Shown piece after piece: positions 2,587 to 20,401 of a stretch of 64,000 nt of DNA. A program made the translations under genes and the position numbers. Each line of letters begins with the position of its first letter. Within the stretch, counting starts at the first letter, position 1. Below the pieces are notes generated by a model. The model saw only the letters and a list, made by a program, of their open reading frames with translations, searched no databases and was not told the origin of the DNA. Source of the DNA: an uncultured Acidimicrobiia bacterium (lineage in GTDB: Bacteria; Actinomycetota; Acidimicrobiia; Spongiisociales; UBA5794); NCBI GenBank assembly GCA_963704825.1, contig CAVPHV010000017.1, forward strand, positions 102,325 through 166,324, given 5' to 3'.

Positions 2587-3648
2587 ATGCGGACACGTAT
2601 GCTCGGGCGTATGACCGACTGGCCATTTGCCTCACCGATCAAACCCATGAAGGCCCGGGTGAAGGAAACTCCGCCGCAGGGCGAAGGTTGGGTGTACGAG
2701 CCCAAGTGGGATGGCTTTCGCGCCATCGCCTGGGGTGGGGCCGAACCAATGCTGGAGAGCCGCAACGGCAAGCCACTGCTGCGCTACTTCCCCGAGCTGC
2801 TTCCGGCGCTCGAGCAACTTCCGGCCGGGACGGTGATTGACGGCGAGGTCGTGGTGGTGGTCGACGACGTCACCCAATTCGACCAGCTCCAACTTCGGAT
2901 CCATCCGGCCGCCTCGCGGATCGAGAGGCTCTCCGGCGAGATCCCCGCCGAGTTGGTGGCCTTCGATCTGCTTGCCGTTGGTGGAGAAGACCTGCGCGCC
3001 ACGCCGTGGGTCGAACGTCGGGAGCGGCTCGAGGAGCTCTTCGCCGGGCTCGAGCTCCCCTGGCATCTCACGCCGGTGACCAGTGACTTCGCTGAGGCCG
3101 AGCGGTGGTTCTCCGAATACGAGGGCGCCGGCTGCGACGGGATCATCTGCAAGCTCGACGACGGCGCCTACGTCGAGGACAAGCGGGTGTGGATCAAGTG
3201 GAAACACCGGCGCGATTGTGACTGCGTGGTCGGCGGCTACCGGGTCCACAAAGACGGTGACAAGATCGGGTCGATTCTGCTCGGTCTCTTCAACGACGAA
3301 GGCAACTTCCACTTCATGGGCCATTGCTCCGGATTCTCCGACCACGACCGGGTCGAGTTGTTGCGCCAATTCGAGCAGATCCGTTCAGACGAGAGCTTTG
3401 GCGGCGATGACGACGTCAGGGTGCCGGGCGCCCAGAGTCGATGGTCGACCGGCAAGGAACTCGACTGGATCCCGGTCACGCCCGGTGTTGTGGTCCAGAT
3501 CAGCTACGACCAGCTCGAGGGTGGCCGGTTCCGTCATGCCACCCGTTTCGAGCGGTGGCGTCCCGACAAGCCGGCCGACGAATGCACCCTGGACCAGTTG
3601 GAACGACCCGAAGGGGCCGGCTTCGCCGAGGTGGTCGATACCTCGTAA
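2587..3648 (+). CDS. ATP-dependent DNA ligase, stand-alone ligase domain (LigC/LigD-ligase-like)
   Basis: Lysine-adenylation motif EPKWDGFR (KxDG) near the N-terminus. Length and motifs fit nucleotidyltransferase plus OB domains. The true start may be an internal Met (MTDWPF...). Confidence 0.8.
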   Translation: MRTRMLGRMTDWPFASPIKPMKARVKETPPQGEGWVYEPKWDGFRAIAWGGAEPMLESRNGKPLLRYFPELLPALEQLPAGTVIDGEVVVVVDDVTQFDQLQLRIHPAASRIERLSGEIPAELVAFDLLAVGGEDLRATPWVERRERLEELFAGLELPWHLTPVTSDFAEAERWFSEYEGAGCDGIICKLDDGAYVEDKRVWIKWKHRRDCDCVVGGYRVHKDGDKIGSILLGLFNDEGNFHFMGHCSGFSDHDRVELLRQFEQIRSDESFGGDDDVRVPGAQSRWSTGKELDWIPVTPGVVVQISYDQLEGGRFRHATRFERWRPDKPADECTLDQLERPEGAGFAEVVDTS

Positions 3649-5036: not shown

Positions 5037-6035
5037 CTACTCGTCTTCCCAGTTCTCGGCCCGCTTTTTCGAGGGCTGCACCCGGGGCGGCTCGCCGGGC
5101 ATCTTGGGGTAGTGCGGTGGCCAGGGGGCATCGCCGATGCCCTGTTCCTCGTCGGCGGCAACCAGGGCCATGGCGGCCTCGAGCGAGCAGGCAGCCTCGT
5201 CGATGCCCTCGGTGAGGTCGCCAACCTCGGCCCAGCGCTCCTTGAACGCCATGATGTCCATCGCCCGGTGGTCGATGGTGGCGAGTTCGTTCCAGCGGAA
5301 TGGGGTCGACACCCATCCGGTGTGCCGGATCGAATAGGCGCTGGCGATGGTTTTGTCCCAGGCGTTCTGGTTGAAGTCGAGGAAAACGCCGTCGCGCTCC
5401 TCCTTCCACCATGCCGTGGTGGCCAGCTCGTGGCGGCGTTCCACCTCGCGGGCGATGGCGAGTCCGGCACGGCGCAGCTCGAAGTAGTCCCAGGATCGTT
5501 CGACTCTTGTGTAGATGTGAATCCCGCGGTTCCCCGATGTCTTGGGCCAGCCGATCAGCCCGAGTTCGTCGAGTACCTCTTTGACGATGGCGGCGACCTC
5601 TCGGGCTGCCTCGAAGTCGTAGTCGTCGGTCGGGTCGAGATCGATCCGCAGCTCGTCGGGATGATCGATGTCGTCGGCGCGGGCGTTCCACGGGTTGAGG
5701 TCGATGCAGTTCATCTGTGCCATCCAGATGACGTCGCCCTCATCCAGGGGAGCGAACATGCGCCCCGGCCGAGCTGAGGGAAACCGGACGTCGACCAGGT
5801 TGCTGGCGCTCTTGGGGCGCTTCACGAACAGGGGTGGCTCAGTAACGCCGCGGTTCCAACGTTTGAGCAGCGACGGCCGGTTATAGACCCCGCGCAGCGC
5901 TCCGGTGGCGCACATCAGGTAGTGCTCGACGACATCGAGCTTGGTCCAGCCCTGTTCGGGGAACATGACCTTGCTCGCGCTCGAGATTCGAATCTCCCGC
6001 CCGGCGGCCTCAACAAAGGTCTCGTCTGAGGCCAC
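5037..6035 (-). CDS. Stand-alone LigD-type polymerase/primase domain protein (NHEJ PolDom, archaeo-eukaryotic primase fold)
   Basis: Motifs KTSGNRGIHIY and DFNQNA are typical of the LigD polymerase domain, as are the length (~330 aa) and acidic residues. Confidence 0.8.
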   Translation of the reverse strand: MASDETFVEAAGREIRISSASKVMFPEQGWTKLDVVEHYLMCATGALRGVYNRPSLLKRWNRGVTEPPLFVKRPKSASNLVDVRFPSARPGRMFAPLDEGDVIWMAQMNCIDLNPWNARADDIDHPDELRIDLDPTDDYDFEAAREVAAIVKEVLDELGLIGWPKTSGNRGIHIYTRVERSWDYFELRRAGLAIAREVERRHELATTAWWKEERDGVFLDFNQNAWDKTIASAYSIRHTGWVSTPFRWNELATIDHRAMDIMAFKERWAEVGDLTEGIDEAACSLEAAMALVAADEEQGIGDAPWPPHYPKMPGEPPRVQPSKKRAENWEDE

Positions 6036-7557: not shown

Positions 7558-9954
7558 TCAGTTGGTCACGATCGAGAACCGGCGATTGGCCTTTTGGGGG
7601 TCCTTGTTGCCGGCCCGGTCCACAACGTGGGCGAGGACCTTGAAGTTCCCGTCCTTCTTCAGGTTGCGGGTGAAGGTCCACGTGGTATCGGTACCGCCGG
7701 GATCGGCCAGGGTGACCCTCGGCAGCTTGACCTTCGGTCCCCACGACCCGTCGGGCTGCAGATACTTTCCGGTGTTGGTGTCCTTGACGATGAGTCTGAC
7801 AAAACCAACCCCGAGGTTGTCGGTTGCCCTTCCCTCGAACTGCACCGTCCGGGATGACAACGTCTGGTCCTTCTTGGGCTTCTTGAAGGTGGCGTTGGGA
7901 GCCGTCGTATCGACGCTGAAGGTGGCGGAGGCCTTGGCAGGGTCTTTGTTGCCCGCCAGGTCCTTGACCTGGACCCACACCTCGAAGTTGCTCTCCGGGA
8001 GTGTGCCATTCCAGTCCCAATTCGTTGTCGGTGTGTTGGGGGATGTCAGATTGGCGGGGACCGCGTTCCAGGCTCCCCAGGTGGTGCCGTTGTCCTGGAG
8101 GTAGTCACCCGTCTCCTTGTCCTTGATGATCAGGTTGACCTCGGCGACCGCAATGTTGTCGGTGGCACCGCCGCTCATGGCGACCGAGGTCGTCGCGAAC
8201 GCTTGGTCCGGGGCCGGGACATCGAGTGTCCCGTCCGGCTCAACCGTGTCGTTGCCGGAGGTCACGACGAACGATCGCGTCGCCGGCGAACCATCCACGT
8301 TGCCGACGATGTCTTCGGCCCTGACCGTGACGGTGTAGCTGCCGTTGGGGAGGTCGCCCGACCAGCCGAACGCGGTCGATGTGGCCTGATACTCGTGGAC
8401 GAAGGAAGGAATCTGGGCCCACGTCCCCGCCCACGTCAAGTCCGGCTGCAGATACTGGTCGTTGCCGGTGTTCTTGACCACCACATAGACCTCGGCGACA
8501 CCCCTGTTGTCGGAGGCGGTGCCGGTGACCGTGACCCGACCGTTGTATACCTGACCGTTGGTCGGCACCGTCAGGCTTCCGTTTGGTGCGGTGGTGTCGC
8601 TGGGTGGGGTCGTGCTCGGGAGCTCGAAGAGGGCGTGACGGAAGGTCTGGAGCCCGCCGAACCGTTCACCGTCGCTGCCGGCGAGGAGCCCAACCGGAGT
8701 GGCCTCGAGGGCGAGGACCCCGCGTTGGCCGGAGGCTCCCGGGTCCCATGGCAAGGCGGTGCCGTTGGCGGGATTGATGGCGCCGATCTGGTTCCGGTCC
8801 ACCGTGTTGGCAGGCTGCGTGTTGGTGTTGCCGTTCCCCCAGTCGGTCCACACCGTTCCCGGCTGCTGGAACCAGCGCATGTGGCCACCGACATAGATCG
8901 CCTCGTCGGTGATGGCGACGGCTTCGGGAGTGTCAAACATGCGAGATACCCACGTTGGGTTCACGCCGTTGCCCCCTGCGGTTGGGAAACGCACTGCGAC
9001 ATCGCATCCTGGGGCGAAGTTGCCGAGAGACGACACGGCTACGAAGTAGGAGCCGTCGGGCGAGAACTGCGCGTCGCGCATCAGCGGCCGGATGAACGAC
9101 TCGAACCACGGCTGGCAGTCGTAGTCGTAGTTGGTGGTCTTCCAGGGCAGCAGGCTGGGGGCTCCGTCGATGTCGATCAGGGCCACGCTTTGGCGCGCCT
9201 CACCGCCGACCTTGCGCGAGTTGTGGACGACCAGCAATGTCTTGCCGTCGGGGGTCACGTCGAGGGCCCGTACCGCACCTGCCCTGTTGTTGGGATCCCC
9301 ATCGATCCAGTACCCGGTTTCCTCGGTGACCGGGAAGTTGAAGTCCGCCGCGACCGCTCCGGTTTGCAGATCAACTGCGGCGAGCTTCTCGCGGGCTGTT
9401 CCGTTGACCTGTGCGAAGCCCCCGCCGAAGTAGACCCGATTGCCCGCAACGACAACGTCGTTGACCACTGCTGTGGCGTTCGCTTTGAAGGCGGTCACGA
9501 CGGATCCGTCGACCACGTTGAGCTTCACGACTCGCTTGCGGCTGAGCCCATTTACCGTGTTGAACTGGCCGACGGCGATGATTGTGCCGTCGCCGGCATC
9601 GGCCAGGGCAAAGACGGGGCCGCTCAGCTCGGGTCGGAATGCCATGTCGAGCCGGCCGGTGGCGATGTCGTAGGCAGCGAGATACGGCTGGTTGACCACA
9701 CCGAAGGTGTTGTCGCGCACCTGGGTGTAGCCCCCGCCGACGATGATGCGGTTGCCGACCTGGACGTGGCCGCGTACCTCGTCGTCGAGGAACTCGGGCG
9801 TATTGGCCCGAGGAACCTCTTTCACCACGTCACCGTGGTTGACTCCAGTGGCGGCTGCTTCGTCAATGGTCAGCGCCATGGTCAACGCTGTTGCCAGCGC
9901 CAGCACGACGACGAAGCCGGAACGAGCGCGGCCCTGTGTGAATCCGATCCCCAT
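7558..9954 (-). CDS. Secreted protein with an N-terminal beta-propeller-like region and three C-terminal ~100-aa Ig-like repeats
   Basis: N-terminal signal peptide (VVVLALATALTMALT). Three tandem repeats each contain ...TDN(R/L/I)GV(A/G)EV/FV...K(N/D)T(G/N).(D/K)YLQ(P/D)(D/N)G.W... . Confidence 0.7.
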   Translation of the reverse strand: MGIGFTQGRARSGFVVVLALATALTMALTIDEAAATGVNHGDVVKEVPRANTPEFLDDEVRGHVQVGNRIIVGGGYTQVRDNTFGVVNQPYLAAYDIATGRLDMAFRPELSGPVFALADAGDGTIIAVGQFNTVNGLSRKRVVKLNVVDGSVVTAFKANATAVVNDVVVAGNRVYFGGGFAQVNGTAREKLAAVDLQTGAVAADFNFPVTEETGYWIDGDPNNRAGAVRALDVTPDGKTLLVVHNSRKVGGEARQSVALIDIDGAPSLLPWKTTNYDYDCQPWFESFIRPLMRDAQFSPDGSYFVAVSSLGNFAPGCDVAVRFPTAGGNGVNPTWVSRMFDTPEAVAITDEAIYVGGHMRWFQQPGTVWTDWGNGNTNTQPANTVDRNQIGAINPANGTALPWDPGASGQRGVLALEATPVGLLAGSDGERFGGLQTFRHALFELPSTTPPSDTTAPNGSLTVPTNGQVYNGRVTVTGTASDNRGVAEVYVVVKNTGNDQYLQPDLTWAGTWAQIPSFVHEYQATSTAFGWSGDLPNGSYTVTVRAEDIVGNVDGSPATRSFVVTSGNDTVEPDGTLDVPAPDQAFATTSVAMSGGATDNIAVAEVNLIIKDKETGDYLQDNGTTWGAWNAVPANLTSPNTPTTNWDWNGTLPESNFEVWVQVKDLAGNKDPAKASATFSVDTTAPNATFKKPKKDQTLSSRTVQFEGRATDNLGVGFVRLIVKDTNTGKYLQPDGSWGPKVKLPRVTLADPGGTDTTWTFTRNLKKDGNFKVLAHVVDRAGNKDPQKANRRFSIVTN

Positions 9955-11023: not shown

Positions 11024-11776
11024 CTATGGGATGGTGGGGAGAAGTGCCCGAATCCGCTCGAGTACGCCGTCGAGAGTCACCACGGTGAAGCGGAAGGTTG
11101 GCGTCTCCGCCGGTTCGGTGGCCACCACCCAATAGCCGAGGTGTCCGGCGTCGAGCACTCGAAGTTCGGCGTCATGGTGAGAGTGGTCGATCTCGGTCCA
11201 CAGACTCGAAACACACCACGTGCGAAGCCGCGACCGATGGGCGAGCACCAGGCGCTTCGCCCAGTGGGCCTCGACGCCGGCGTCGGCGATGATTGCGGTG
11301 GCCGCGGCCGGATCGGTCATCCAGAGGTCCTCGGCGATCTCGATCGTTTCAACCGGGACGATGACCGAGCCATTGAAGCTGGGGTCGGGACGGGCGACGA
11401 TCTTGGTGAGCTGGGCGAGGTGGAACGGGAGGAGGACGGGTTCGATCGAGAAGAGTGCGAAGGCGTCATGGTCGCTCGGTTGGCCGAGGACGGCCTTTCC
11501 GTTGTGGTGCCAGATGGTTGCGATCTCGGTGTGCTCTTCCGTCACCTCGGTGGACACAACGGTGGTTGGTCCGGTCACGACCGAGAGCAGGTCGGCCGCC
11601 AGCGGGTGCAGGATGCCGCCACGGCTGATTCCGGCCCGCTCCAGCTCGGAGATCGCTCGAGTAATGGTCGGGTCTGCGTCGGTGGCGCCCCCGGTTCGCA
11701 GCAACATCGCCACCGGAACCAGGCGGCGGGGCAAGGTGAGGGCGCGTCGCCCGGCGTCGAGTATCGGCTGGGTCAC
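11024..11776 (-). CDS. Hypothetical cytoplasmic protein, third gene of the LysM/membrane-protein operon divergent from the esx-eccC operon
   Basis: ~250 aa, no TM helices. Probable GTG start at 11776 overlaps the upstream stop (GTGA coupling). EspG-like chaperone role considered but not supportable from sequence alone. Confidence 0.5.
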   Translation of the reverse strand: MTQPILDAGRRALTLPRRLVPVAMLLRTGGATDADPTITRAISELERAGISRGGILHPLAADLLSVVTGPTTVVSTEVTEEHTEIATIWHHNGKAVLGQPSDHDAFALFSIEPVLLPFHLAQLTKIVARPDPSFNGSVIVPVETIEIAEDLWMTDPAAATAIIADAGVEAHWAKRLVLAHRSRLRTWCVSSLWTEIDHSHHDAELRVLDAGHLGYWVVATEPAETPTFRFTVVTLDGVLERIRALLPTIP

Positions 11777-12708
11777 TGAGTGGCAGATCCGTGTGAGGCC
11801 GGAGGGCCGGGGAGGATGTCGGCCACTTCCCATTCGCCCCCGTTGCTGGAGAGCTCCAGTGTGTAGGCCACGACATGGACGATTCCGTTTGGCGTGGTTG
11901 CGTTGACGACGGTGCTCACGTAGGTCCGGCCATCGACAACACCTGTCGCCAGCTCAGACAGGGCAACCGCCTGATAGGGGAACGGCTCGATTGCCCGGAT
12001 GTCGCTGCCTGCGACGGTGTAACGCGACAGACGGTGCGACCCAACGAGCATGGCGTCGAGGAACTCTGCGGTGAACTCGGCCAGCTCGGCGTCGACCTCG
12101 TCTGCGAGGGGCGGGATAGGCGGCGGCGTCGGGGCGGGCGGCCCAGCAACTCGTGCCGGGATCTCGGTCACGATGAGCCGCCCATCGACCTTCATGACTC
12201 CGACTTGGTAGTGCTCGATCCCTGCCGAGACGTATCCGTTCTCGGTACGCTCCATGACCTCGGTGGCCACGGTCACATCCCAGTAGGCGCCGCCGAGCGT
12301 CCGGATCTCGATAGTGGCTGCTCGAGTCACATACCGATCGAGTGGTGACATCGCCGCCATCGTCGCCTGGGGTGCCATGAAGGTCTCAACGGACTGGCCG
12401 TTGGTCCCGCCTCCCGTCAGATAGGTCGCGATGAAGAGTTCGGCGAACCCGTCGACGCCGGAGGGCGGAGCAGGGGGTGCCGACACGGTGGCGCTCTGCG
12501 CTGCTCGGGATGCCCACAGCCCCGCCGCGGCGGCGAGCAGAGCGCCGATGGCGAGCGCGACGATGAGACCCCTGGTAGGTCTGCCCGCACGGTGTCTTGG
12601 GTACGGCGGGGCCGGTTCGATTTCCGCTTCGGTTGAGGGCTGAGTCTCCGCCCCGAAATAGTCCTCGATGTCGGTGACGGGTCTCCCAAAATCGAAGTGC
12701 GTGGTCAT
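11773..12708 (-). CDS. Single-pass membrane protein with a ~35-aa cytoplasmic N-terminus, one TM helix and a ~250-aa extracytoplasmic domain
   Basis: ATG at 12708 with GAGGA SD. It overlaps the LysM gene stop (ATGA). TM segment GLIVALAIGALLAAAAGLWA followed by a Pro-rich stretch and a globular domain. Confidence 0.6.
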   Translation of the reverse strand: MTTHFDFGRPVTDIEDYFGAETQPSTEAEIEPAPPYPRHRAGRPTRGLIVALAIGALLAAAAGLWASRAAQSATVSAPPAPPSGVDGFAELFIATYLTGGGTNGQSVETFMAPQATMAAMSPLDRYVTRAATIEIRTLGGAYWDVTVATEVMERTENGYVSAGIEHYQVGVMKVDGRLIVTEIPARVAGPPAPTPPPIPPLADEVDAELAEFTAEFLDAMLVGSHRLSRYTVAGSDIRAIEPFPYQAVALSELATGVVDGRTYVSTVVNATTPNGIVHVVAYTLELSSNGGEWEVADILPGPPASHGSATQ

Positions 12709-13487
12709 GGCTGTTCCTCGGCAACGGCGGGCAACACAACGATCTCGCCGGGATAGATGAGGTCGGGGTCGCTCGAGCGGATGACGTCTTGGTTGGCGAC
12801 GACAACGCGGTGCCAGTACTCGCCGACATCGGGCAGTTGGGCCCCCGAGGCCGCGAAGGTACCGAGGTGTTGTTCGGCAATAGTCCACAGGTTGTCGCCG
12901 GGGGCCACGGTCCACTGCGCCGGCTCGGTGATCACCATGGAGGTGGGCGCCGCAGTTGCCGGGCTGGGCACTCCTGCTGGGGTGGGGGTCCATCCGACTC
13001 GGGTGGCTCCCTGTGGCAAGGTCTCGGCCGGCTCGGGGTCTTCGCTGCCGACAAACGGCGGAATGGGGAGGCCGTCCTCGCCGATTCCTACGACGATCGG
13101 AGAGGGTCCGTCGGTGGCGATGGCGGACATGGCCGGTCCGGCGACGGTCGCGGCGACGATGGTCAGTGCCGCCGTGCCGTCAACGACCCTGCGCACCGCC
13201 GGGAGCGTTGCCCACTCGATCGCCCGTGCCGCGCCCGGAATCCTGGCCAACCGGGCCAGGGCGTAGAGCGCCGTTGAGATCGCAAGCCAGTAGGCAAGAG
13301 CCAGCGCGACGATCCGGAGTAGTGCCGGCAGCGACTCGTCGGCGGGAGTCTGCTGGAGCCAGTTTCCCAGCTGACGCCATGGAATCTGGAGCCACTCAAC
13401 CTCTCCGATGGCGTGTAGGGCCACGAGCGCGCCGGCCTCGAAGACGATCAGCGTGGCCGCCCGGACCCCTCTCGATTCTCGTTCCAT
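12705..13487 (-). CDS. Membrane-anchored LysM domain (peptidoglycan-binding) protein
   Basis: 2-3 N-terminal TM helices, a Pro-rich linker and a C-terminal LysM (WTVAPGDNLWTIAEQHLG...IYPGEIVVLP). Start ATG at 13487 (MERESRG); an upstream alternative TTG start exists at 13523. Confidence 0.65.
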   Translation of the reverse strand: MERESRGVRAATLIVFEAGALVALHAIGEVEWLQIPWRQLGNWLQQTPADESLPALLRIVALALAYWLAISTALYALARLARIPGAARAIEWATLPAVRRVVDGTAALTIVAATVAGPAMSAIATDGPSPIVVGIGEDGLPIPPFVGSEDPEPAETLPQGATRVGWTPTPAGVPSPATAAPTSMVITEPAQWTVAPGDNLWTIAEQHLGTFAASGAQLPDVGEYWHRVVVANQDVIRSSDPDLIYPGEIVVLPAVAEEQP

Positions 13488-13489
13488 TG

Positions 13490-13580
13490 AGTCATCATAT
13501 GCATTGCTAAATGTGTTTGTCAATAGTCAACAATCGTTATACTATATTGACAATTGTTAAATACCTTACATAATCTTCAA
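13490..13580. promoter_or_regulatory. AT-rich (~30% GC) divergent promoter island between the LysM operon and the WXG100-EccC operon
   Basis: Plus-strand promoter: -35 TTGACA at 13547-13552, 17-nt spacer, -10 CATAAT/ATAATC at ~13569-13575. Minus-strand promoter: -35 TTGACA (complement of 13516-13521), 17-nt spacer, -10 ATATGA (13493-13498) for a near-leaderless LysM gene. Near-palindromes TTGTCAATAGTCAACAA and TTGACAATTGTTAA overlap the -35 boxes. Confidence 0.55.
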
Positions 13581-13643
13581 CTATGACCAAGTCGACCGGC
13601 CCTGCGGTCGGTCGACTCGAGCAAGGAAGGAAGGACCAGCACA

Positions 13644-13916
13644 ATGGCGAATATGTTTGGGGCGGATCTGTCGGATCTCGCGGCCCTGCGGGGGACGTTT
13701 GAGACAAAGGCGGGCGAGGTCCAGGCGCTGACCGGAGAACTGTCGGCAAAGGTGGACCCGGCCGCAACGGCGTGGCAGGGGCCGGGCGCCGACAACTTCC
13801 GGGCGGCATGGAACGGCGACTTCAAGCCGGCACTCACCAAGCTCGAGACGGCCCTCGAGGAAGCCGCAGTTGCCGTCGGCAAGTACCGCGAGAACATCGA
13901 GGCGGCTACCCGGTAA
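13644..13916 (+). CDS. WXG100 family type VII secretion target (EsxA/EsxB-like), 90 aa
   Basis: Helical hairpin with central WQGPGADNF (WxG) motif. Size ~90 aa. SD GGAAGGAAGGA upstream. Confidence 0.85.
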   Translation: MANMFGADLSDLAALRGTFETKAGEVQALTGELSAKVDPAATAWQGPGADNFRAAWNGDFKPALTKLETALEEAAVAVGKYRENIEAATR

Positions 13917-13946
13917 CCCTGAGTCTCGAGATCGGGAGGGGAAACC

Positions 13947-14309
13947 GTGACCCCGCACCAGCTCCGGCAATTGGCCGACCGCAATCGGGCGGAGGCGGAC
14001 GCACTGACGGCGTCCGCCGCCCGACTGCGGACGACTGCCGAGTCGTTCCGCGATCTGCTGGAGGGGATTCCCGACCAATCCCGCCGGGTCTGGCAGGGAC
14101 CGGCCGCGACCGACTTCGAGGACAAGGCGCAGGCCGCAGACCGTGATCTCCGCCAACAGGCTCAGGTTCTGTTGAGCACCGCGAGCGACTTCGATCGGGA
14201 GGCGGCAGATCTCAGGGCAGCGGCCCGCGGGCTCGAGGTGCGAGCTGCTGCTGAGGAGGCGGCGACCGTTCCGGGTGAATCGGGTCCGCCTCCAACCGGC
14301 GTGTGGTGA
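13947..14309 (+). CDS. WXG100 family protein, 120 aa, second Esx-like gene
   Basis: Central WQGPAATDFE (WxG) motif. Paired with the upstream WXG100 gene and immediately followed by eccC. Confidence 0.8.
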   Translation: MTPHQLRQLADRNRAEADALTASAARLRTTAESFRDLLEGIPDQSRRVWQGPAATDFEDKAQAADRDLRQQAQVLLSTASDFDREAADLRAAARGLEVRAAAEEAATVPGESGPPPTGVW

Positions 14310-17300
14310 GTGATGCAGATCGTTGTGCACCGCGCCGGAGCCGAGTTCGAGGTGGTACTCGCCGTCGGCGACGAATCGGCCTCACTCGGCGAGATCGTGG
14401 CCGGGTGGTTCGAGGATGCCCCGGCGGCATTTGTCATCGACGGTGTGGTGCGATCGGGAGATACTCCCCTCGCAGCAAGTGGTCTGAGATCTGGATCAGT
14501 GCTCATTCCGCTGGCAGCAGCAGGCCCTATCCCCGAACTGACGGAGGGTGGGCTGGGCGCGGTCGGGCGGCCGTCCTCCTCCTCTCGCATTCCCTTCAAC
14601 CGCCCGCCGCGGCCAGAGTATCCGGTGTCGCTGCCGGCCATCGAGGTGCCGGCCGCACCGCCGGTGGCCAAAGCCTCGACCCGTTTTGGCTGGGGAGCGC
14701 TGGTCGTTCCGCTGATACTCGGACTGGTCATGGCGGTGTTCTTTCACCCCCGGATGGCGCTGTTCGCTCTCTTCAGCCCGGCCATGATGCTGGCCAACTG
14801 GATGGAAGACCGCAGGCGCAGCCGGCGCGAGCGCAGGAGCAGCCAAGCCGACCTCGATCGCAGTCTCGCCGGATTCGGGGACCGGCTCGACGACCTCGCC
14901 ACCGCCGCCGCCCGACTCAAACGCCGCGAGGTGCCGCATCCCGATGGGCTGATTGCATCTCTTGTCGCCGGGAGTCTGCGGATGTGGGAGCGTCGGGTCC
15001 ATCACCCCGACGCCATGGTGCTCGGAATTGGCAGCGGCGACGTCGCGTGGAGCCCGGCCCTGATCACCCCACCTGGGGGCGCCGCGGAGGAGGCGCTGGC
15101 ATTGCTGGCGACGCGCCGCGAGTTGCGCGGGGTTCCGGTCGAAGTCGAGTTGCGGCCCGGTGAGGTGACGGGACTGGTCGGCGATCGCCGCCGCGCCCTT
15201 GGCATGGCACGCTCGCTCCTGATTCAGGCTGCGATCCTCCACGGTCCGGCTGATCTCGAGCTCACGGTGGTCACCGACGCTCCGGATGTGTGGGATTGGA
15301 TCAAGTGGCTGCCTCACGCCGACCTCGACCCGGTGGCTGGGCTGCGCCGGCTCGGAGCCGACCGTGAGGACGTCGGCCCGGTCGTTACCGCCCTGTTGGA
15401 GTCGATTGAGCGGGATCCCGGAGGCAGCGGGCCGATGCGATTGCTCGTCGCCGATGTTGTGGATGTTGCCGCCGAAAGGTGGCAGCGGGTGCGAGAGGGG
15501 CTGAGCGCCGCGGCTCGGGGCAAGGCCGCCGCCATCGCGATTGCCCGCTCGATGAGCGAGTTGCCGTCGGTGTGTACTTCGATTGTTGCGGTTGGTGCCG
15601 GCGGGCCAGCACAGCTGCGGGCTCCCGCAGAGAATCGAAACGTCGGCGGGATTGCGCCGTGGGTCGTTGCTGCGGCGACGGCGCGCCGTGCGGCACGGGC
15701 GCTCGCCGGGTTTCGGGATCCCGATGTTGTCGCCGGTGCAGCAGAGCTTCCCCACCAGGTTCGTCTGCCTGATCTTCTTGGAATCTCCGATCCAACGCCG
15801 GACGCCATCCTGCGCCGCTGGCAGGCCGCAGGCGCCGCCCCGCGCCCGGCGGCCCCCATCGGCATGACCGCCGACGGTCCGCTTCTTGTCGACTTTGTGT
15901 CGGATGGACCCCACGCTCTGTTGGCCGGGACCACCGGCGCCGGTAAGTCCGAGCTGCTGCGCACGTTGGTCGCCTCCCTGGCGGCAACGAACGACCCCGA
16001 CCACCTCACCTTCGTGCTGATCGACTACAAGGGAGGGAGCGCCTTCGACGTCTGCGCCGACCTGCCCCACACCGTTGGTCTGGTAACGGATCTCGATGGG
16101 CACCTGGCGTCGCGGGCGCTCACCTGCCTGGAAGCCGAACTGCGCTACCGCGAGCAGCGTTTGCGCGCTGCGGGGGCATCTGATCTTGCCGCGTACTTGG
16201 CGGGTGGCGAGCCGGAGCCGCTGCCCCGGCTGCTGGTTGTCATCGACGAGTTCGCTGCCCTGGCCAAGGAACTGCCGGCGTTCATGGCGTCCCTCGTCGA
16301 CATCGCCCAGCGCGGCCGCAGCCTTGGGGTGCACCTCTTGCTCGCCACCCAACGGCCCGGGGGTGTGATCAGCGACAGCATCCGCGCCAACACCAACCTG
16401 CGGATGGCGCTGCGAGTCCAGGATGGGTCCGACTCGACCGACGTCCTGGGCATCCCGGACGCGGCAACGATTGGTCGGATGCAGCCGGGCCGTGGCCTGG
16501 TGCGGCGCGGACCCGGTGATGTGGTGCCGTTCCAGACGGCGCTGGTCACTACACCAAGGGGCGATGGCGCGGCAACCGCAGCTGCGGTGCGGCCGTTTGT
16601 CTTCGGCTACGAGCAGCCTGCGGCGGCAGGCACCGACCGCACCGAAACCGGTCCGACCGACCTGGGGGCGCTGGTCGACGCGGTGACTGGGGCGACCGCC
16701 ACCCTCGGGCTCGAGCCACCGCGTCGACCGTGGCCGGACCCGCTCGAAACCAACGTGGCCGCCAAGCTTCTCGACGCGACCCCGCCCGATCAGGTGCGCG
16801 GCGCGCGGATCGCGGTGCCGCTCGGGCTCGCCGACGAGCCCACCCACCAGCGGCAGCGGACCGCGTGGTGGTCAAGTGAGGATGGCAATCTGCTCCTGTA
16901 CGGCGTGCCTGGTTCGGGAACGACGACTGCTCTGGCGACCATCGCGCTTGGGGTGGCGGGACGCCACTCGCCGGACGATGTGCACGTGTACGTCATGGAC
17001 TTCGACGACCAGCGCTTGGCCCCATTGGCCGGTCTCCCCCACGTCGGGGCGGTGGTCGGGGCAGGGGAGCGAGAGCGTCAGCTGCGCCTCCTGCGGTTTC
17101 TCCAGGCCGAGGTGGAGGAGCGCCGGGTGGCGGTGGCGGCCGATCCGGCAGTCCTCGGGGAATTGCCCGCCCTGCTGGTGCTGGTGGACAATTACGCCGG
17201 TCTGGCGGCGGCCTTCGACGAGCCGGCCGACATGGCGGTGCGGACCATTCTCCCCCGGGTCGCGGCTGATGGCCCCGGCGTCGCCATCCATGTCGTGGCC

Positions 17301-18221
17301 ACGGCAAAACAGCCCATCGACATACCCGCCCAGCTGGGTTCTCTGGTCCCCGCCAAGCTGGCCTTTCGCCTCACCGATCGCTACGAGTACGGCGGGCTCG
17401 GCATCCCCATCGAAGAGGTGCCAAGGATCCCGGGACGCGCTCACCAATCGGGGACGGGGCAGGAGATCCAGATCGCTCGAGCCCATCCCGGTGGTGTCGC
17501 CGCGGCCGTAGACGCGCATGCCGACCAGGCAGTGGCGCGGCCACCGCATCGCATCGAGGTACTCCCCACCGAAGTCAAGGTGCCCGACATCGTCGATGCG
17601 GCGCGCGTCTTCGACCTCGAGTGGTCCCTGCCGATCGGGATCGGAGATCACGACCTCAGCCCGGTGGGGTTCGTGCTCGGCGAGGGAGATCACGTTGTGG
17701 TCGCCGGGCCGCCACGGTCGGGCAAGTCGACGGCGCTGATGACCATGGCTGCGATCGTGGCGAGCCACCGGCCCGACGTGATCATCACCGCGGTGGCTCT
17801 GCGGCGCTCTCCATTGCGAGACTGCCCGCAGGTGACGCGGCTCGTCACGGATCCTGAGCAGCTCGAGGATGCCCTTGGTTCGGTGCCCAACGGCGATGGG
17901 TCGCCCCATCTCGTGCTGGTCGATGACGCCGGGATGGTCGACGACGAGGGCGGCTGGCTATCCGCAATGGTCGCTTGCCGTCGGCCCGGGGTGCATCTGG
18001 TGGCGGCCGACCAGGCGGACACGCTGCGGGCCGCCTACGGGCATTGGACCAAGGATGTGCGACGTTCCCGTCTCGGACTCGCCCTCAAGCCGAACGCAGG
18101 CTCCGACGGGGATCTATGGCTAACGCCACTGCCGCGTCGAGGTCCGCCTCACTTCCCTCCCGGGCGGGGCTACCTGTTGGCGGATGGCCGCTGTGAGCTG
18201 GTGCAGACGGCATGGCAGTGA
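14310..18221 (+). CDS. eccC: EccC-like type VII secretion FtsK/SpoIIIE family ATPase with three P-loop NTPase domains
   Basis: 1303 aa. N-terminal soluble domain then two TM helices (~aa 125-165). Three Walker A sites: LLAGTTGAGKSE, LLLYGVPGSGTTT (degenerate) and VVVAGPPRSGKST. Start directly abuts the second WXG100 gene. Confidence 0.9.
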   Translation: MMQIVVHRAGAEFEVVLAVGDESASLGEIVAGWFEDAPAAFVIDGVVRSGDTPLAASGLRSGSVLIPLAAAGPIPELTEGGLGAVGRPSSSSRIPFNRPPRPEYPVSLPAIEVPAAPPVAKASTRFGWGALVVPLILGLVMAVFFHPRMALFALFSPAMMLANWMEDRRRSRRERRSSQADLDRSLAGFGDRLDDLATAAARLKRREVPHPDGLIASLVAGSLRMWERRVHHPDAMVLGIGSGDVAWSPALITPPGGAAEEALALLATRRELRGVPVEVELRPGEVTGLVGDRRRALGMARSLLIQAAILHGPADLELTVVTDAPDVWDWIKWLPHADLDPVAGLRRLGADREDVGPVVTALLESIERDPGGSGPMRLLVADVVDVAAERWQRVREGLSAAARGKAAAIAIARSMSELPSVCTSIVAVGAGGPAQLRAPAENRNVGGIAPWVVAAATARRAARALAGFRDPDVVAGAAELPHQVRLPDLLGISDPTPDAILRRWQAAGAAPRPAAPIGMTADGPLLVDFVSDGPHALLAGTTGAGKSELLRTLVASLAATNDPDHLTFVLIDYKGGSAFDVCADLPHTVGLVTDLDGHLASRALTCLEAELRYREQRLRAAGASDLAAYLAGGEPEPLPRLLVVIDEFAALAKELPAFMASLVDIAQRGRSLGVHLLLATQRPGGVISDSIRANTNLRMALRVQDGSDSTDVLGIPDAATIGRMQPGRGLVRRGPGDVVPFQTALVTTPRGDGAATAAAVRPFVFGYEQPAAAGTDRTETGPTDLGALVDAVTGATATLGLEPPRRPWPDPLETNVAAKLLDATPPDQVRGARIAVPLGLADEPTHQRQRTAWWSSEDGNLLLYGVPGSGTTTALATIALGVAGRHSPDDVHVYVMDFDDQRLAPLAGLPHVGAVVGAGERERQLRLLRFLQAEVEERRVAVAADPAVLGELPALLVLVDNYAGLAAAFDEPADMAVRTILPRVAADGPGVAIHVVATAKQPIDIPAQLGSLVPAKLAFRLTDRYEYGGLGIPIEEVPRIPGRAHQSGTGQEIQIARAHPGGVAAAVDAHADQAVARPPHRIEVLPTEVKVPDIVDAARVFDLEWSLPIGIGDHDLSPVGFVLGEGDHVVVAGPPRSGKSTALMTMAAIVASHRPDVIITAVALRRSPLRDCPQVTRLVTDPEQLEDALGSVPNGDGSPHLVLVDDAGMVDDEGGWLSAMVACRRPGVHLVAADQADTLRAAYGHWTKDVRRSRLGLALKPNAGSDGDLWLTPLPRRGPPHFPPGRGYLLADGRCELVQTAWQ

Positions 18222-19753
18222 GCGGCTTTCGCGGGATTGATCCCGACGGGCTCGTTGGGTTGAGCCGGATGATGGAGGGCACTGCGGCTGAGGTGCTCGC
18301 CGCAGGCAACCTGGGCTACGCGGTGCTCGTCCGCCGCGACCGGGAGTCCGCCGGCGACCGCTTCGGGATGGCGATGAGTCGCCTCGCCCGGCAACTCGAC
18401 GACGAGGCGGCGGAAATGAGCTGGCGGGCTGAGGCAATTCGACGGGGTCAGCTGATGACCTCCTCGTCGATGCCCTCGATGGTGGTTGCCGAACTCCTCT
18501 GGGAAGAGGCTGAGTTCGCCGCGGCCGCCAGGTTCACCGTCGGCGACCGTCAGGTGAGCTTCGAACAGTGGCGCCAACGCCCGCCGGTCCGCGCCCTGAG
18601 GAAGATGCGGCCGGACCAGGTGTCGGCGGCCTTGGCGGCCATGTCTCTCGCGGCAGTCGATCGCCTCCTGCTCGAAGAGCCAACCCTGGTGGGGGGGTTG
18701 GACGGAGCCCCCGCTTGGCTGCGGTGTACCGCAAACGACATGCTGATCGGGCGGGAGGTGAATCGGCTCGCCGGACTTGCCGCCGAGATCGCGGATGAGA
18801 TCAACCAGTTGGAGGATCTCGAGTGGTCGGGCCGCACCACGCAGCAGCGTCTGGTGCGCGAGGTGTACCTCGACGAACTCGAGCGGATCGAGGCGCGCAT
18901 CGCCATGTTCGGTCGGTGGTTGGCCGAGGATCGCCAGATCCTGCTGTTCGACCCTCGAGGTGACGGCCGAGTCGCTGAGGTGTTCGGAGACCTCGACCAA
19001 GCTGGTTTTGTCGCCGTGGTGGTGCCGGGGATCACCAACGACATCGACAACTTCGGTCCGATCGACGGTGGGGGGTTTCGAGCCAACGCCGGACAGCTCT
19101 ACGAGGAGGCGGCGAGGCTCGAGCCCGACGTGGCCACAATCGCCTGGCTGGGCTACGACACGCCCGATGGCGCCGATGCGGCGCTAGCCGGTGCCGCTGA
19201 GGACGGTCACCGCCACCTCGTTGCCTTCACCAAGGGTCTTGCCGCAGCGACTCCCGAACCGCACCTCACCGTCATCGGTCACAGCTACGGTTCGCTGGTC
19301 ACCGGGATGGCGGCGGGTGCCGGCATGGCGGTTGACGATGTTGTGTTCGTCGGAAGCCCCGGAACCAGCCTCGACCGGGCAAGCGAGGCGATCATCGACA
19401 GGGGGGGACGGGTGTGGGCGGGCTTGGCGCACAAGGACCCGATCGGGGCGGGCATCGATCCCCTTCCCGACTCGGCATGGGAGTTCATGCTCGGCCCAAT
19501 CGGCTCGTACGTATGGGACAGCTTTGGGACCGGTGACTACGCGACGGAGGACCTGTGGCATGGCCGCAACCCCGTTCACGAGTCGTTCGACGCCATCGAG
19601 TTCACTACCGATGGCGCCGCGGGTCATTCGCAGTACTTCGCCGCCGGCACCGAATCGTTGGCCAACCTGGCGCGCATCATCGCCGGTCTCGACTTCGCCG
19701 TCCGCTTGGTCGGTGGCGGCGAACTAGCAGCCGACTCAGTCGAAGACGATTGA
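18212..19753 (+). CDS. DUF1023-type alpha/beta hydrolase with N-terminal helical domain; candidate T7SS-associated substrate/effector
   Basis: 513 aa. GHSYGS nucleophile elbow and downstream Asp/His-containing segments in the C-terminal half. N-terminal ~250 aa helical. Start overlaps the eccC stop by 10 nt. Confidence 0.7.
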   Translation: MAVSGFRGIDPDGLVGLSRMMEGTAAEVLAAGNLGYAVLVRRDRESAGDRFGMAMSRLARQLDDEAAEMSWRAEAIRRGQLMTSSSMPSMVVAELLWEEAEFAAAARFTVGDRQVSFEQWRQRPPVRALRKMRPDQVSAALAAMSLAAVDRLLLEEPTLVGGLDGAPAWLRCTANDMLIGREVNRLAGLAAEIADEINQLEDLEWSGRTTQQRLVREVYLDELERIEARIAMFGRWLAEDRQILLFDPRGDGRVAEVFGDLDQAGFVAVVVPGITNDIDNFGPIDGGGFRANAGQLYEEAARLEPDVATIAWLGYDTPDGADAALAGAAEDGHRHLVAFTKGLAAATPEPHLTVIGHSYGSLVTGMAAGAGMAVDDVVFVGSPGTSLDRASEAIIDRGGRVWAGLAHKDPIGAGIDPLPDSAWEFMLGPIGSYVWDSFGTGDYATEDLWHGRNPVHESFDAIEFTTDGAAGHSQYFAAGTESLANLARIIAGLDFAVRLVGGGELAADSVEDD

Positions 19754-20401
19754 TTCGAGCATGGCTTCTCCCTCGGCAATCCGTTGCACGTTCAGATCGC
19801 CCTCATAGAGGAACGCGGCATATAGGGTGCCCGTTGCTGCCTCGATCAGGACAAAGCGGCTGACCGAAACCGTGCCGTCGTCATGGGAGATGGTGCGCTC
19901 CACGATATGGGCCGGAGCGCCGTCGATCGTCGCTTCCTCAGCCACGGTGACCTCGCTGGTGCCGGGGGTGGGGAAGAAGAACTCAGCGAAGAGGTCGGCA
20001 TTGGCGTCGGCGATCTCGGCTGGAGTTCCTGCGTCGGCGAAGTCGAGGTCTTCGGAGGCGAAGCCGATGAAGAGGACGCCGCCGGGCCCCTCCTCGGTGT
20101 CGATCAAGGCGGCAACACGCCCGTAGGTGATGCCGTCCTGGCGCACCACCCAGTCGCGTGGCACCGTGATCGAGATCCCGAGCGGCTCCACGGCAACCGG
20201 GTCGAGCGGGGCAGGCGCCGCGGCGCTCGACGTTGTCGGCGCCGCCGATGTCGTCGCACTGGGCGAGGCAGTGGTCGAAGTCGTCGTTGCTGTGGTTGTT
20301 GTGGTGGTGGCCGTGTCGGTTGCGGAGCACGCCGTCGCGGCGAGGACGACGACGGCGAGGGCTGCTGGCAACAACGTCCTACGGATGGGCATGGCCGCCA
20401 T
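19736..20401 (-). CDS. Secreted/lipo-protein with Thr-rich linker
   Basis: Signal peptide with LAATAC lipobox-like motif, poly-Thr linker and a globular C-terminal domain. It overlaps the yibE/F-like gene start, so the two are probably co-transcribed. Confidence 0.6.
   Translation of the reverse strand: MAAMPIRRTLLPAALAVVVLAATACSATDTATTTTTTATTTSTTASPSATTSAAPTTSSAAAPAPLDPVAVEPLGISITVPRDWVVRQDGITYGRVAALIDTEEGPGGVLFIGFASEDLDFADAGTPAEIADANADLFAEFFFPTPGTSEVTVAEEATIDGAPAHIVERTISHDDGTVSVSRFVLIEAATGTLYAAFLYEGDLNVQRIAEGEAMLESIVFD

Follow-up and report, generated by a model that had tools for sequence, protein, structure and literature searches.

A DUF1023-type hydrolase gene coupled to eccC encodes a candidate dedicated substrate of a type VII-like secretion operon in Acidimicrobiia

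Analysis of a 64,000-nucleotide (nt) stretch of the genome of an uncultured Acidimicrobiia bacterium (GenBank assembly GCA_963704825.1, contig CAVPHV010000017.1, positions 102,325 to 166,324; hereafter, the window) uncovered an apparently undescribed, type VII-like secretion operon, which encodes 2 small proteins of the WXG100 type (WXGa and WXGb), an EccC/EssC-type ATPase and, at its end, an alpha/beta hydrolase of the DUF1023 family preceded by a clade-specific helical head. With moderate confidence, we interpret this hydrolase as a conserved substrate dedicated to a compact system of Acidimicrobiia related to type VII secretion systems (T7SSs), namely, an exported extracytoplasmic serine hydrolase of the esterase/lipase type rather than a polymorphic toxin. 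Because the hydrolase gene is always the last one of the operon, its product is probably the dedicated cargo of the system and not a variable toxin. A preliminary description of the gene had proposed a T7SS-secreted effector, either a lipase/esterase-type toxin or a cell-wall enzyme. Export through EccC has remained the best-supported part of that proposal, considering the linkage to the eccC and WXG100 genes, the position and reuse of the head and the presence of an EspG-like gene, whereas the toxin role fared less well.

The genetic linkage of the hydrolase to the EccC ATPase and the 2 WXG100 genes, of the kind expected for T7SS substrates, is invariant. When genomes, one for each species, were scanned with the hydrolase as a query, 80 loci were obtained, and eccC was located directly upstream in every Acidimicrobiia locus with a full-length hydrolase match (approximately 27), down to 39% identity (tblastn). 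The complete module, with the genes for EspG-like, TcpC-like, and LysM-like proteins on one strand and those for the 2 WXG100 proteins, EccC and the DUF1023 hydrolase on the other, is present wherever the contig permits (positions 11027–19753 of the window; loci L001–L022, L034, L037, L045, and L081–L124) and is embedded among housekeeping genes. Because this genome sample was picked by the hydrolase itself, a reverse test was made through the WXG100 protein. With this protein as the only query, 44 loci were retrieved from metagenomes, and the hydrolase gene follows eccC in all 13 contigs that reach past the eccC stop codon, as recognized by tblastn in 10 contigs and by the conserved N-terminal motif within the remaining 90–315 nt in the other 3. 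Thus, the hydrolase gene is an invariant member of the module rather than an accessory one.

The open reading frame (ORF) and its 10-nt overlap with eccC, the stop codon of which (TGA) occupies positions 18219–18221, are as initially described, and the GC content of its codon positions (0.72/0.49/0.80) is as usual for genes of the window, which has a GC content of 65%. An alternative GTG start at 18218 would reduce the overlap to the 4-nt GTGA, and eccC and the hydrolase gene are joined by such a GTGA overlap in 8 of the 12 orthologous loci in which both gene ends could be placed. Accordingly, 18218 may be the true start of the gene; close homologs of the hydrolase begin with MSGFRGIDP, in agreement with the GTG start. 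Whichever of the 2 starts is used, the gene is predicted to be coupled to eccC, so that the initial suggestion of expression coupled to that of the secretion ATPase gained support from the junctions of the related loci. Neither a signal peptide nor a transmembrane segment, either of which would have made T7SS export unnecessary, was found in the 513-aa protein; the highest Kyte–Doolittle mean over 19 residues is 1.66 and belongs to a buried strand-elbow.

Sequence identity within the family amounts to 53–56% in the hydrolase core, 32–35% in the adjoining helical module and 27–29% in the head. The context downstream of the gene varies, with most loci carrying a convergent response regulator and histidine kinase, the window and its 2 closest relatives a lipoprotein-like gene and YibE/F, and 2 loci a co-oriented proC; no conserved co-oriented downstream gene was found among the loci compared. 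Since the downstream genes differ by lineage and are mostly convergent, a conserved candidate for an immunity gene is lacking. Nor were orthologs with swapped C-termini seen at the eccC locus. Being orthologous, single-copy and syntenic, and having no immunity partner, the gene appears to encode a housekeeping or system-linked enzyme rather than an interbacterial toxin. The lipase/esterase-type toxin first envisaged is disfavored by this class-wide synteny, by the identity values given above and by the missing immunity gene. The lipoprotein-like gene (19739–20401, minus strand) was considered in that role and rejected, as it is restricted to the window, L001 and L002. It is convergent with the hydrolase gene and overlaps its last 15 nt, counting the stop codon; the 221-aa product contains a signal peptide ending in LAATAC, a Thr-rich linker and a weak match to TIGR03931 (T7SS-associated Rv3446c; E = 2e-4).

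The assignment of the C-terminal part to the alpha/beta hydrolases, with GHSYGS as the nucleophile elbow, was borne out by both profile and structure analyses. The protein matches PF06259 (Abhydrolase_8, formerly DUF1023) over residues 247–411 (E = 1.5e-38, 132.6 bits versus a cut-off of 20.5), as do all 53 full-length homologs collected, and in their alignment Ser358 (within GHSYGS), Asp409 and His472 are invariant, so that the catalytic triad is complete. DUF1023 was placed in the alpha/beta hydrolase fold by Zheng et al. (2005), according to the citation in PMC11878206. In an AlphaFold2 model built on the 53-homolog alignment (pLDDT 89.1, pTM 0.86), residues 11–238 consist of helices only and the alpha/beta fold begins at residue 242, with Ser358 positioned between strand 351–357 and helix 359–370, that is, in the nucleophile elbow. 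The nearest structures in a Foldseek search are cutinases, polyethylene terephthalate (PET) hydrolases, feruloyl esterases, and dienelactone hydrolases, all weak matches (E of about 2e-4, TM-scores of 0.43–0.51), and PDB sequence searches with the protein and with the family profile returned no relatives. Ten of the 53 members weakly match the model of Tle3, a phospholipase effector of type VI secretion systems (best E = 5.6e-4), which makes lipase-like chemistry possible, if unproven. An insertion between the catalytic Asp and His (residues ~412–450) is modeled as a low-confidence helix (pLDDT 61–73), is absent from the WXG100-headed and transmembrane-anchored paralogs described below and may be a lid. 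Considering the sequence and the model together, the protein is a predicted serine hydrolase of the esterase/lipase type.

The helical N-terminal region comprises 2 parts. In BLASTP comparisons, a paralog from Actinotalea fermentans (L042; E = 8e-48) and one from Solirubrobacterales (L026; E = 2e-62) both align with the hydrolase from residue 134 exactly. The former paralog is headed by a WXG100 domain scoring above the Pfam cut-off (36.4 bits) and the latter is transmembrane-anchored. Across the family, the head position is occupied by a Sec signal (Dermatophilaceae, Actinocatenispora), a transmembrane anchor (Solirubrobacterales) or a WXG100 domain (Actinotalea), and most DUF1023 family members in this analysis have a Sec signal or transmembrane anchor. 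Because homology with the paralogs begins exactly at residue 134, residues 1–133 occupy the position of an export signal, and because the catalytic unit starting at 134 follows Sec, transmembrane or WXG100 elements elsewhere, an extracytoplasmic site of action is indicated. Judged from these alignments, residues 1–133 are an exchangeable head, whereas residues 134–245, which carry a conserved LDGAPxxxRYxAN motif in the 53-homolog alignment, are part of the family-wide catalytic unit. The N-terminal helical region of about 250 residues that had been noted earlier is, therefore, all-helical as claimed (residues 11–238), but its targeting part is limited to residues 1–133, the remainder being common to the Sec- and transmembrane-type paralogs.

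The head recurs on other proteins. An exhaustive phmmer search with residues 1–130 against 1.84 billion representatives matched only the hydrolase family itself and P0123/P0124. These 2 proteins of 565 aa have a head that is clearly homologous, but their C-terminus of 450 aa is different and has no Pfam match; a profile search with the head alignment in an index of 5.8 billion proteins returned a single fragment. The second head family comprises 10 clusters. Its members (P0123, P0124, P0126–P0134) are Acidimicrobiia proteins of about 565–620 aa without a Pfam domain, in which a head (MFRGIDPEGL...LRWRA) homologous to residues 1–115 of the hydrolase is followed by about 450 unrelated residues. 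In the 2 contigs examined (L125, 2531–4228; L126, 10001–11743), these genes are located after genes for TetR, an ABC ATPase, and an ABC-2 permease and before a convergent gene for a 193-aa protein, and in neither contig are they near eccC. Furthermore, the first hairpin of the head is homologous to the heads (~70 aa) of orphan DUF1023 proteins (hhalign probability of 88%, P = 2.9e-6 over 70 columns; P = 0.72 for the reversed control). These orphans are Sec-less paralogs from Acidimicrobiia (L033, 4220–5566; L036, 9767–11104; L038, 9776–11143; L067, 9554–10729; L077, 9644–10747) with a hairpin head of the form M[FY]R[RM]IDP...AWW... and without eccC within 10 kb. A secretion signal would be expected to occur in just this way, on different cargoes of which some are encoded at a distance from the machine.

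Several observations weigh against this interpretation. Although helices 11–41 and 45–84 are present in both AlphaFold2 models with pLDDT above 90 and make up the helix-turn-helix of about 100 residues that is typical of WXG100 proteins, none of the 53 heads matches the Pfam families WXG100 (PF06013), PPE, LXG, or T7SS_signal. There is no WxG in the turn of the head (residues 41–45), and the sole WxG (W205-S-G), which lies in the second hairpin, is found in 6 of the 53 homologs. Likewise, YxxxD/E is absent from the protein encoded in the window and is found, at position 172, in 14 of the 53. Hence, the T7SS signals that the preliminary description had recommended looking for in the N-terminal helices are not conserved. 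Profile comparisons (hhalign) of the head with WXGa (P = 0.014–0.02, with the N-termini in register) and WXGb (P = 0.002) were marginal (reversed controls, 0.12–0.2), and those of the 2 hairpins with these proteins remained so when the orphan heads were added to the profile. No match to the LXG domain (PF04740) was found in the hydrolase or its homologs; an L-x-G is present at residues 14–16 in 28 of the 53, but helix 1 begins there and the motif does not indicate homology. The head has the hairpin architecture of WXG100 proteins but neither the conserved motif nor a Pfam match to WXG100 or LXG, and it is best treated as a new helical family, the membership of which in WXG100 or LXG is unproven. 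Moreover, EccB, EccD, and MycP were not found among the Pfam-scanned ORFs of the window, so that this EccC is a candidate exporter, and literature and PDB searches revealed no functional study, characterized member or solved structure for DUF1023.

On the favored reading, the pathway could operate as follows. A single strong sigma-70-type promoter predicted upstream of WXGa would drive transcription of the genes for WXGa, WXGb, EccC, and the hydrolase. At the eccC stop, the GTGA or ATGGCAGTGA start/stop overlap would allow the hydrolase to be made together with the ATPase by termination-reinitiation. Residues 1–133 would then target the protein, probably by joining WXGa, WXGb or both in a helical bundle or else while bound by the EspG-like protein, before recognition by EccC. 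The folded hydrolase would be translocated by EccC with the participation of the TcpC-like and LysM-like membrane proteins, and, once outside the membrane, the Ser358-Asp409-His472 triad would cleave an ester-type substrate in the envelope of the producer or in its surroundings. As in the PE/PPE–EspG system, a gene for an EspG-family candidate chaperone is present in the locus.

Other readings place the enzyme differently. It might be an obligatory accessory of the apparatus that is exported and kept there, either for envelope remodeling that permits assembly of the system or passage of its substrates, in the manner of EssH, or for stabilization of the complex, in the manner of MycP. In ESX systems, the MycP protease stabilizes the secretion complex. 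EssH, in turn, is a dedicated hydrolase required for secretion by the T7SSb (PMC13059805), and the presence of the DUF1023 gene, coupled to eccC, in every locus examined would be more in keeping with a core component than with an effector of accessory nature, as would the strong conservation of the catalytic domain and the occurrence, in the same locus, of a LysM-like membrane protein that possibly binds the cell wall. Yet the hydrolase has no transmembrane segment or wall-anchoring domain, DUF1023 has an esterase-type fold rather than a known peptidoglycan hydrolase fold, and the occurrence of the head on orphan paralogs and on the second family, away from eccC, suits a targeting signal better than a docking domain. 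We regard this alternative as unlikely, bearing in mind that it overlaps with the favored reading in that the hydrolase is exported in both. A broader proposition, which we consider doubtful although slightly more plausible, is that the locus, with EccC, 2 WXG100 proteins and the TcpC/VirB8-like, LysM-like and EspG-like proteins but without EccB, EccD or MycP nearby, represents an undescribed Acidimicrobiia subtype of T7SS, in which the DUF1023 esterase is not an effector but an obligatory, built-in component for envelope remodeling with a new targeting head of about 75–133 residues, a head found on further Acidimicrobiia proteins too.

Delivery through the T7SS of a lipase/esterase toxin directed against bacteria or a host, as with TslA of Staphylococcus aureus or the Eat-type toxins of Actinomycetota, appears distinctly improbable. 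T7SS lipase toxins do exist (PMC10730906) and alpha/beta hydrolases are frequent among predicted payloads (PMC13444075), the joining of a helical head to a GxSxG hydrolase and the weak Tle3 matches are compatible with such a role, the product of the convergent lipoprotein-like gene that the window shares with L001 and L002 might confer immunity, and the Actinotalea WXG100–DUF1023 gene adjoins an integrase gene and is followed by a gene for a transmembrane protein. However, class-wide synteny and a cargo that exceeds its head in conservation are the reverse of what a polymorphic toxin would show, the only immunity candidate is confined to the 3 closest genomes, and exchange of C-termini was not seen among the orthologs at the locus. 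Least credible, to the point of being very improbable, is an enzyme that stays in the cytoplasm and has no more than the operon in common with the secretion genes, with coupling reflecting compact packing or co-regulation and the head acting as a regulatory or oligomerization domain. The head does lack a canonical T7SS motif or Pfam secretion domain, helical hairpins are structurally generic and the second family with the same head adjoins an ABC-2 transporter rather than a T7SS; but a cytoplasmic location is at odds with the catalytic unit being found in other lineages behind a Sec signal, a transmembrane anchor (with the catalytic part predicted to be outside) or a WXG100 domain, and with synteny with the eccC and WXG100 genes that holds down to about 40% identity.

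The features of the locus are compiled below. The EccC product matches the EssC and EccCa/EccCb models TIGR03928, TIGR03924, and TIGR03925 with E values between 1e-86 and 1e-148, although none of the matches reaches its equivalog cut-off. Residues 1 to ~95 of EccC (14310–14590), which precede the transmembrane region, have no Pfam match, either to FHA or to YukD; this N-terminus is poorly conserved in many orthologs, with tblastn matches beginning at residue ~87–96. WXGa scores above the cut-offs of both PF06013 (38.2 versus 27.3 bits) and TIGR03930 (46.9 versus 44.85 bits) and is 57–100% identical among the loci, and the W-x-G-P-A-A motif of WXGb is kept in 20 loci.

Features of the type VII-like locus, the divergent promoter region and the parts of the hydrolase (positions refer to the window)
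Feature	Position	Strand	Details
EspG-family protein (candidate chaperone)	11027..11833	-	window copy matches PF14011 with E 6e-4, below cut-off
TcpC-like (VirB8-type) membrane protein	11776..12708	-	PF12642, 33.6 bits versus cut-off 27
LysM-like membrane protein	12708..13523	-	C-terminal LysM, PF01476 E 2.3e-3 (below cut-off); PRK11198 E 1.3e-6
Divergent promoter region	13494..13574	both strands	AT-rich (13494-13640) in a 65% GC genome; within a 120-nt intergenic region
WXG100 protein a (WXGa)	13644..13916	+	90 aa; AWQGPGA; first gene of the operon
WXG100-like protein b (WXGb)	13947..14309	+	120 aa; VWQGPAA; TIGR03930 E 4.2e-5 and PF06013 E 1.7e-3, both below cut-off
EccC/EssC-type triple-ATPase translocase	14310..18221	+	1303 aa; PF01580, three FtsK_SpoIIIE stretches, E 6.3e-57
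Head-DUF1023 hydrolase gene	18212..19753	+	513 aa (ATG at 18212) or 511 aa (GTG at 18218); terminal gene of the operon
Clade-specific helical head, residues 1-133	18212..18610	+	hairpin 11-41/45-84 plus helices 90-121; candidate T7SS-targeting domain
Family-wide helical module, residues 134-245	18611..18946	+	small helices 134-162, long hairpin 168-204/210-238
Alpha/beta hydrolase core, residues 246-513	18947..19753	+	triad, AlphaFold2 model, Foldseek
Catalytic codon S358	19283-19285	+	
Catalytic codon D409	19436-19438	+	
Clade-specific insertion, residues ~412-450	19445-19561	+	between catalytic Asp and His
Catalytic codon H472	19625-19627	+	

On the minus strand, the LysM-like gene is divergent from the secretion operon and syntenic in all loci (21 genome loci and the metagenome loci). 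PF12642 is matched by 15 of 20 TcpC-like orthologs (best E = 1.3e-12) and PF14011 by 12 of 17 EspG-like orthologs (best E = 9.8e-15), and a PDB sequence search with the EspG-like profile found no relatives. The 406-aa ORF called by the ORF finder for the TcpC-like protein (11773–12993, minus strand) is over-extended, with the orthologs and frame-specific GC content favoring a start at 12708 (MTTHFDF...). Given that this start abuts the stop of the LysM-like gene and that the TcpC-like gene shares its 3′-terminal stretch (11776–11833) with the EspG-like gene, the 3 genes look coupled. Each operon is preceded by a promoter agreeing with the consensus at 11 of 12 positions, TTGACA-16 nt-CATAAT (13547–13574) on the plus strand before the WXG–eccC–hydrolase operon and TTGACA-18 nt-TATGAT (13523–13494) on the minus strand before the LysM-/TcpC-/EspG-like operon. 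The promoter region also contains an inverted repeat, TTGTCAA...TTGACAA, and a TTGTCAA(N~17-20)TTGACAATCGTTAAA.ATCG element is found upstream of WXGa in approximately 20 loci, including loci with proteins only about 40% identical; the inverted-repeat element (TTGTCAA...TTGACAATCGTTAAA) is possibly an operator. A strong ribosome-binding site, GAAAGGAAG, is present in the region upstream of WXGa. The genes flanking the module have housekeeping functions (SurE, YibE/F, ProC, proline dehydrogenase, PspA, PFOR, and LigD).

Further observations concern the paralogs and the remainder of the window. The Actinotalea fermentans NBRC 105374 protein with the N-terminal WXG100 domain (AWEGDAA; L042, 9267–11628) is encoded between a 124-aa helical ORF and an overlapping ORF with a transmembrane helix, with a phage-type integrase-like ORF about 1 kb away; this layout resembles a mobile toxin/partner/immunity cassette, unlike that of the Acidimicrobiia locus. 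The DUF1023 paralogs from Solirubrobacterales/Thermoleophilia (L023–L032, L058) have an R/K-rich start followed by G-Q-V-[AT]-A-E-Y-[VA]-G and a hydrophobic helix. A Flp/TadE-type (class III) prepilin leader was considered for this N-terminus (GQVAAEYVG...) in Solirubrobacterales, but the Class_IIIsignal model matched only with E = 0.34 and the segment was treated as a transmembrane anchor. A 798-aa secreted protein (7558–9954, minus strand), in which repeats of beta-propeller type are combined with several Ig-like domains of bacterial type (Big_7, Big_13), bears a superficial likeness to the Ig-rich T7SS components that span the envelope. It was assessed as an EsaA/TsdI-like conduit and rejected, since its conservation is limited to the nearest relatives, where it is syntenic, and to Actinocatenispora loci that are unrelated. 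Finally, genes for an ATP-dependent DNA ligase (2587–3648, plus strand) and a LigD primase-polymerase domain (5037–6035, minus strand), separated by about 1.4 kb, look like split functions of nonhomologous end joining.

DUF1023 is a widespread family of actinobacterial hydrolases, and its fixed linkage with a secretion ATPase offers a handle on the site of action and function of these enzymes. The new helical head, in turn, may mark additional T7SS substrates in Acidimicrobiia, an abundant and almost uncultured class of marine and sediment bacteria. Should secretion prove to depend on the enzyme, there would be a parallel to EssH and MycP, suggesting that type VII systems repeatedly require a hydrolase of their own. 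The locus combines a T7SS-type ATPase and a pair of WXG100 proteins with partners of the TcpC/VirB8, LysM, and EspG types and with an enzyme that is built in, a composition that was not found among the published T7SS subtypes a–j: hydrolase, TcpC, LysM, and Acidimicrobiia are not mentioned in the searched text of the survey by Garrett et al. (2024; PMC11217815).

Comparison with characterized systems helps to position the hydrolase. It belongs firmly to the PF06259 family, as indicated by the profile score far above the cut-off, the triad with GHSYGS and the module 134–245 common to the Solirubrobacterales and Actinotalea paralogs; unlike most members seen in this analysis, those of the eccC-linked clade have the 133-residue helical head, the position in the eccC operon and the insertion at ~412–450. 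The enzyme is comparable to the hydrolases secreted by ESX-5, namely, LipY and the PE/PPE proteins with a PF08237 domain (PE1, PE3, PE4, PE16, PPE28, and PPE42), which have been suggested to serve the biogenesis of the producer's own envelope or the uptake of lipids, rather than killing (PMC7028111). In both cases, a serine alpha/beta hydrolase follows a helical N-terminal domain and the system includes a gene for an EspG-family chaperone. However, the Acidimicrobiia head has no PE/PPE Pfam match and no conserved YxxxD/E, the hydrolase domain is from another Pfam family, and the gene is located inside the core operon, coupled to eccC, with EccB, EccD, and MycP not nearby.

The Eat/Tap-type T7SS toxins of Actinomycetota described by Benedict et al. 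(2026; PMC13444075), in which alpha/beta hydrolases are a common predicted payload and T7SS-headed enzymes coexist with housekeeping paralogs bearing a Sec signal, share with the hydrolase, as do the LXG/Lap toxins of the T7SSb, a helical N-terminus, an enzymatic payload and small WXG100-like helical proteins encoded upstream. Unlike these toxins, the hydrolase has no downstream immunity gene, its payload is more conserved than its head and its gene is invariant in the locus; in addition, the small helical proteins are encoded upstream of eccC in Acidimicrobiia and not directly before the enzyme gene. TslA and TslM, the lipase toxins of reverse arrangement of the S. aureus T7SSb (PMC10730906, PMC13560087), are likewise lipase/esterase-type enzymes associated with a T7SS, with a helical targeting domain working with small helical partners. 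When compared by description, TslA differs in having a C-terminal targeting domain and a lipoprotein immunity partner, TilA, whereas the Acidimicrobiia head is N-terminal; a preprint remark likening S. aureus Q2G056 to PF06259 could not be linked to TslA and was dropped. EssH, a hydrolase genetically and functionally dedicated to the S. aureus T7SSb (PMC13059805), provides a precedent for an invariant enzyme of a T7SS locus, but it is a CHAP amidase/peptidase, whereas the Acidimicrobiia protein is an esterase-type alpha/beta hydrolase without a Sec signal. Collectively, the combination of a helical T7SS head with a serine hydrolase is of a known kind, and what is new is the head family, the invariant position coupled to eccC, the absence of an immunity gene and the unusual partner genes.

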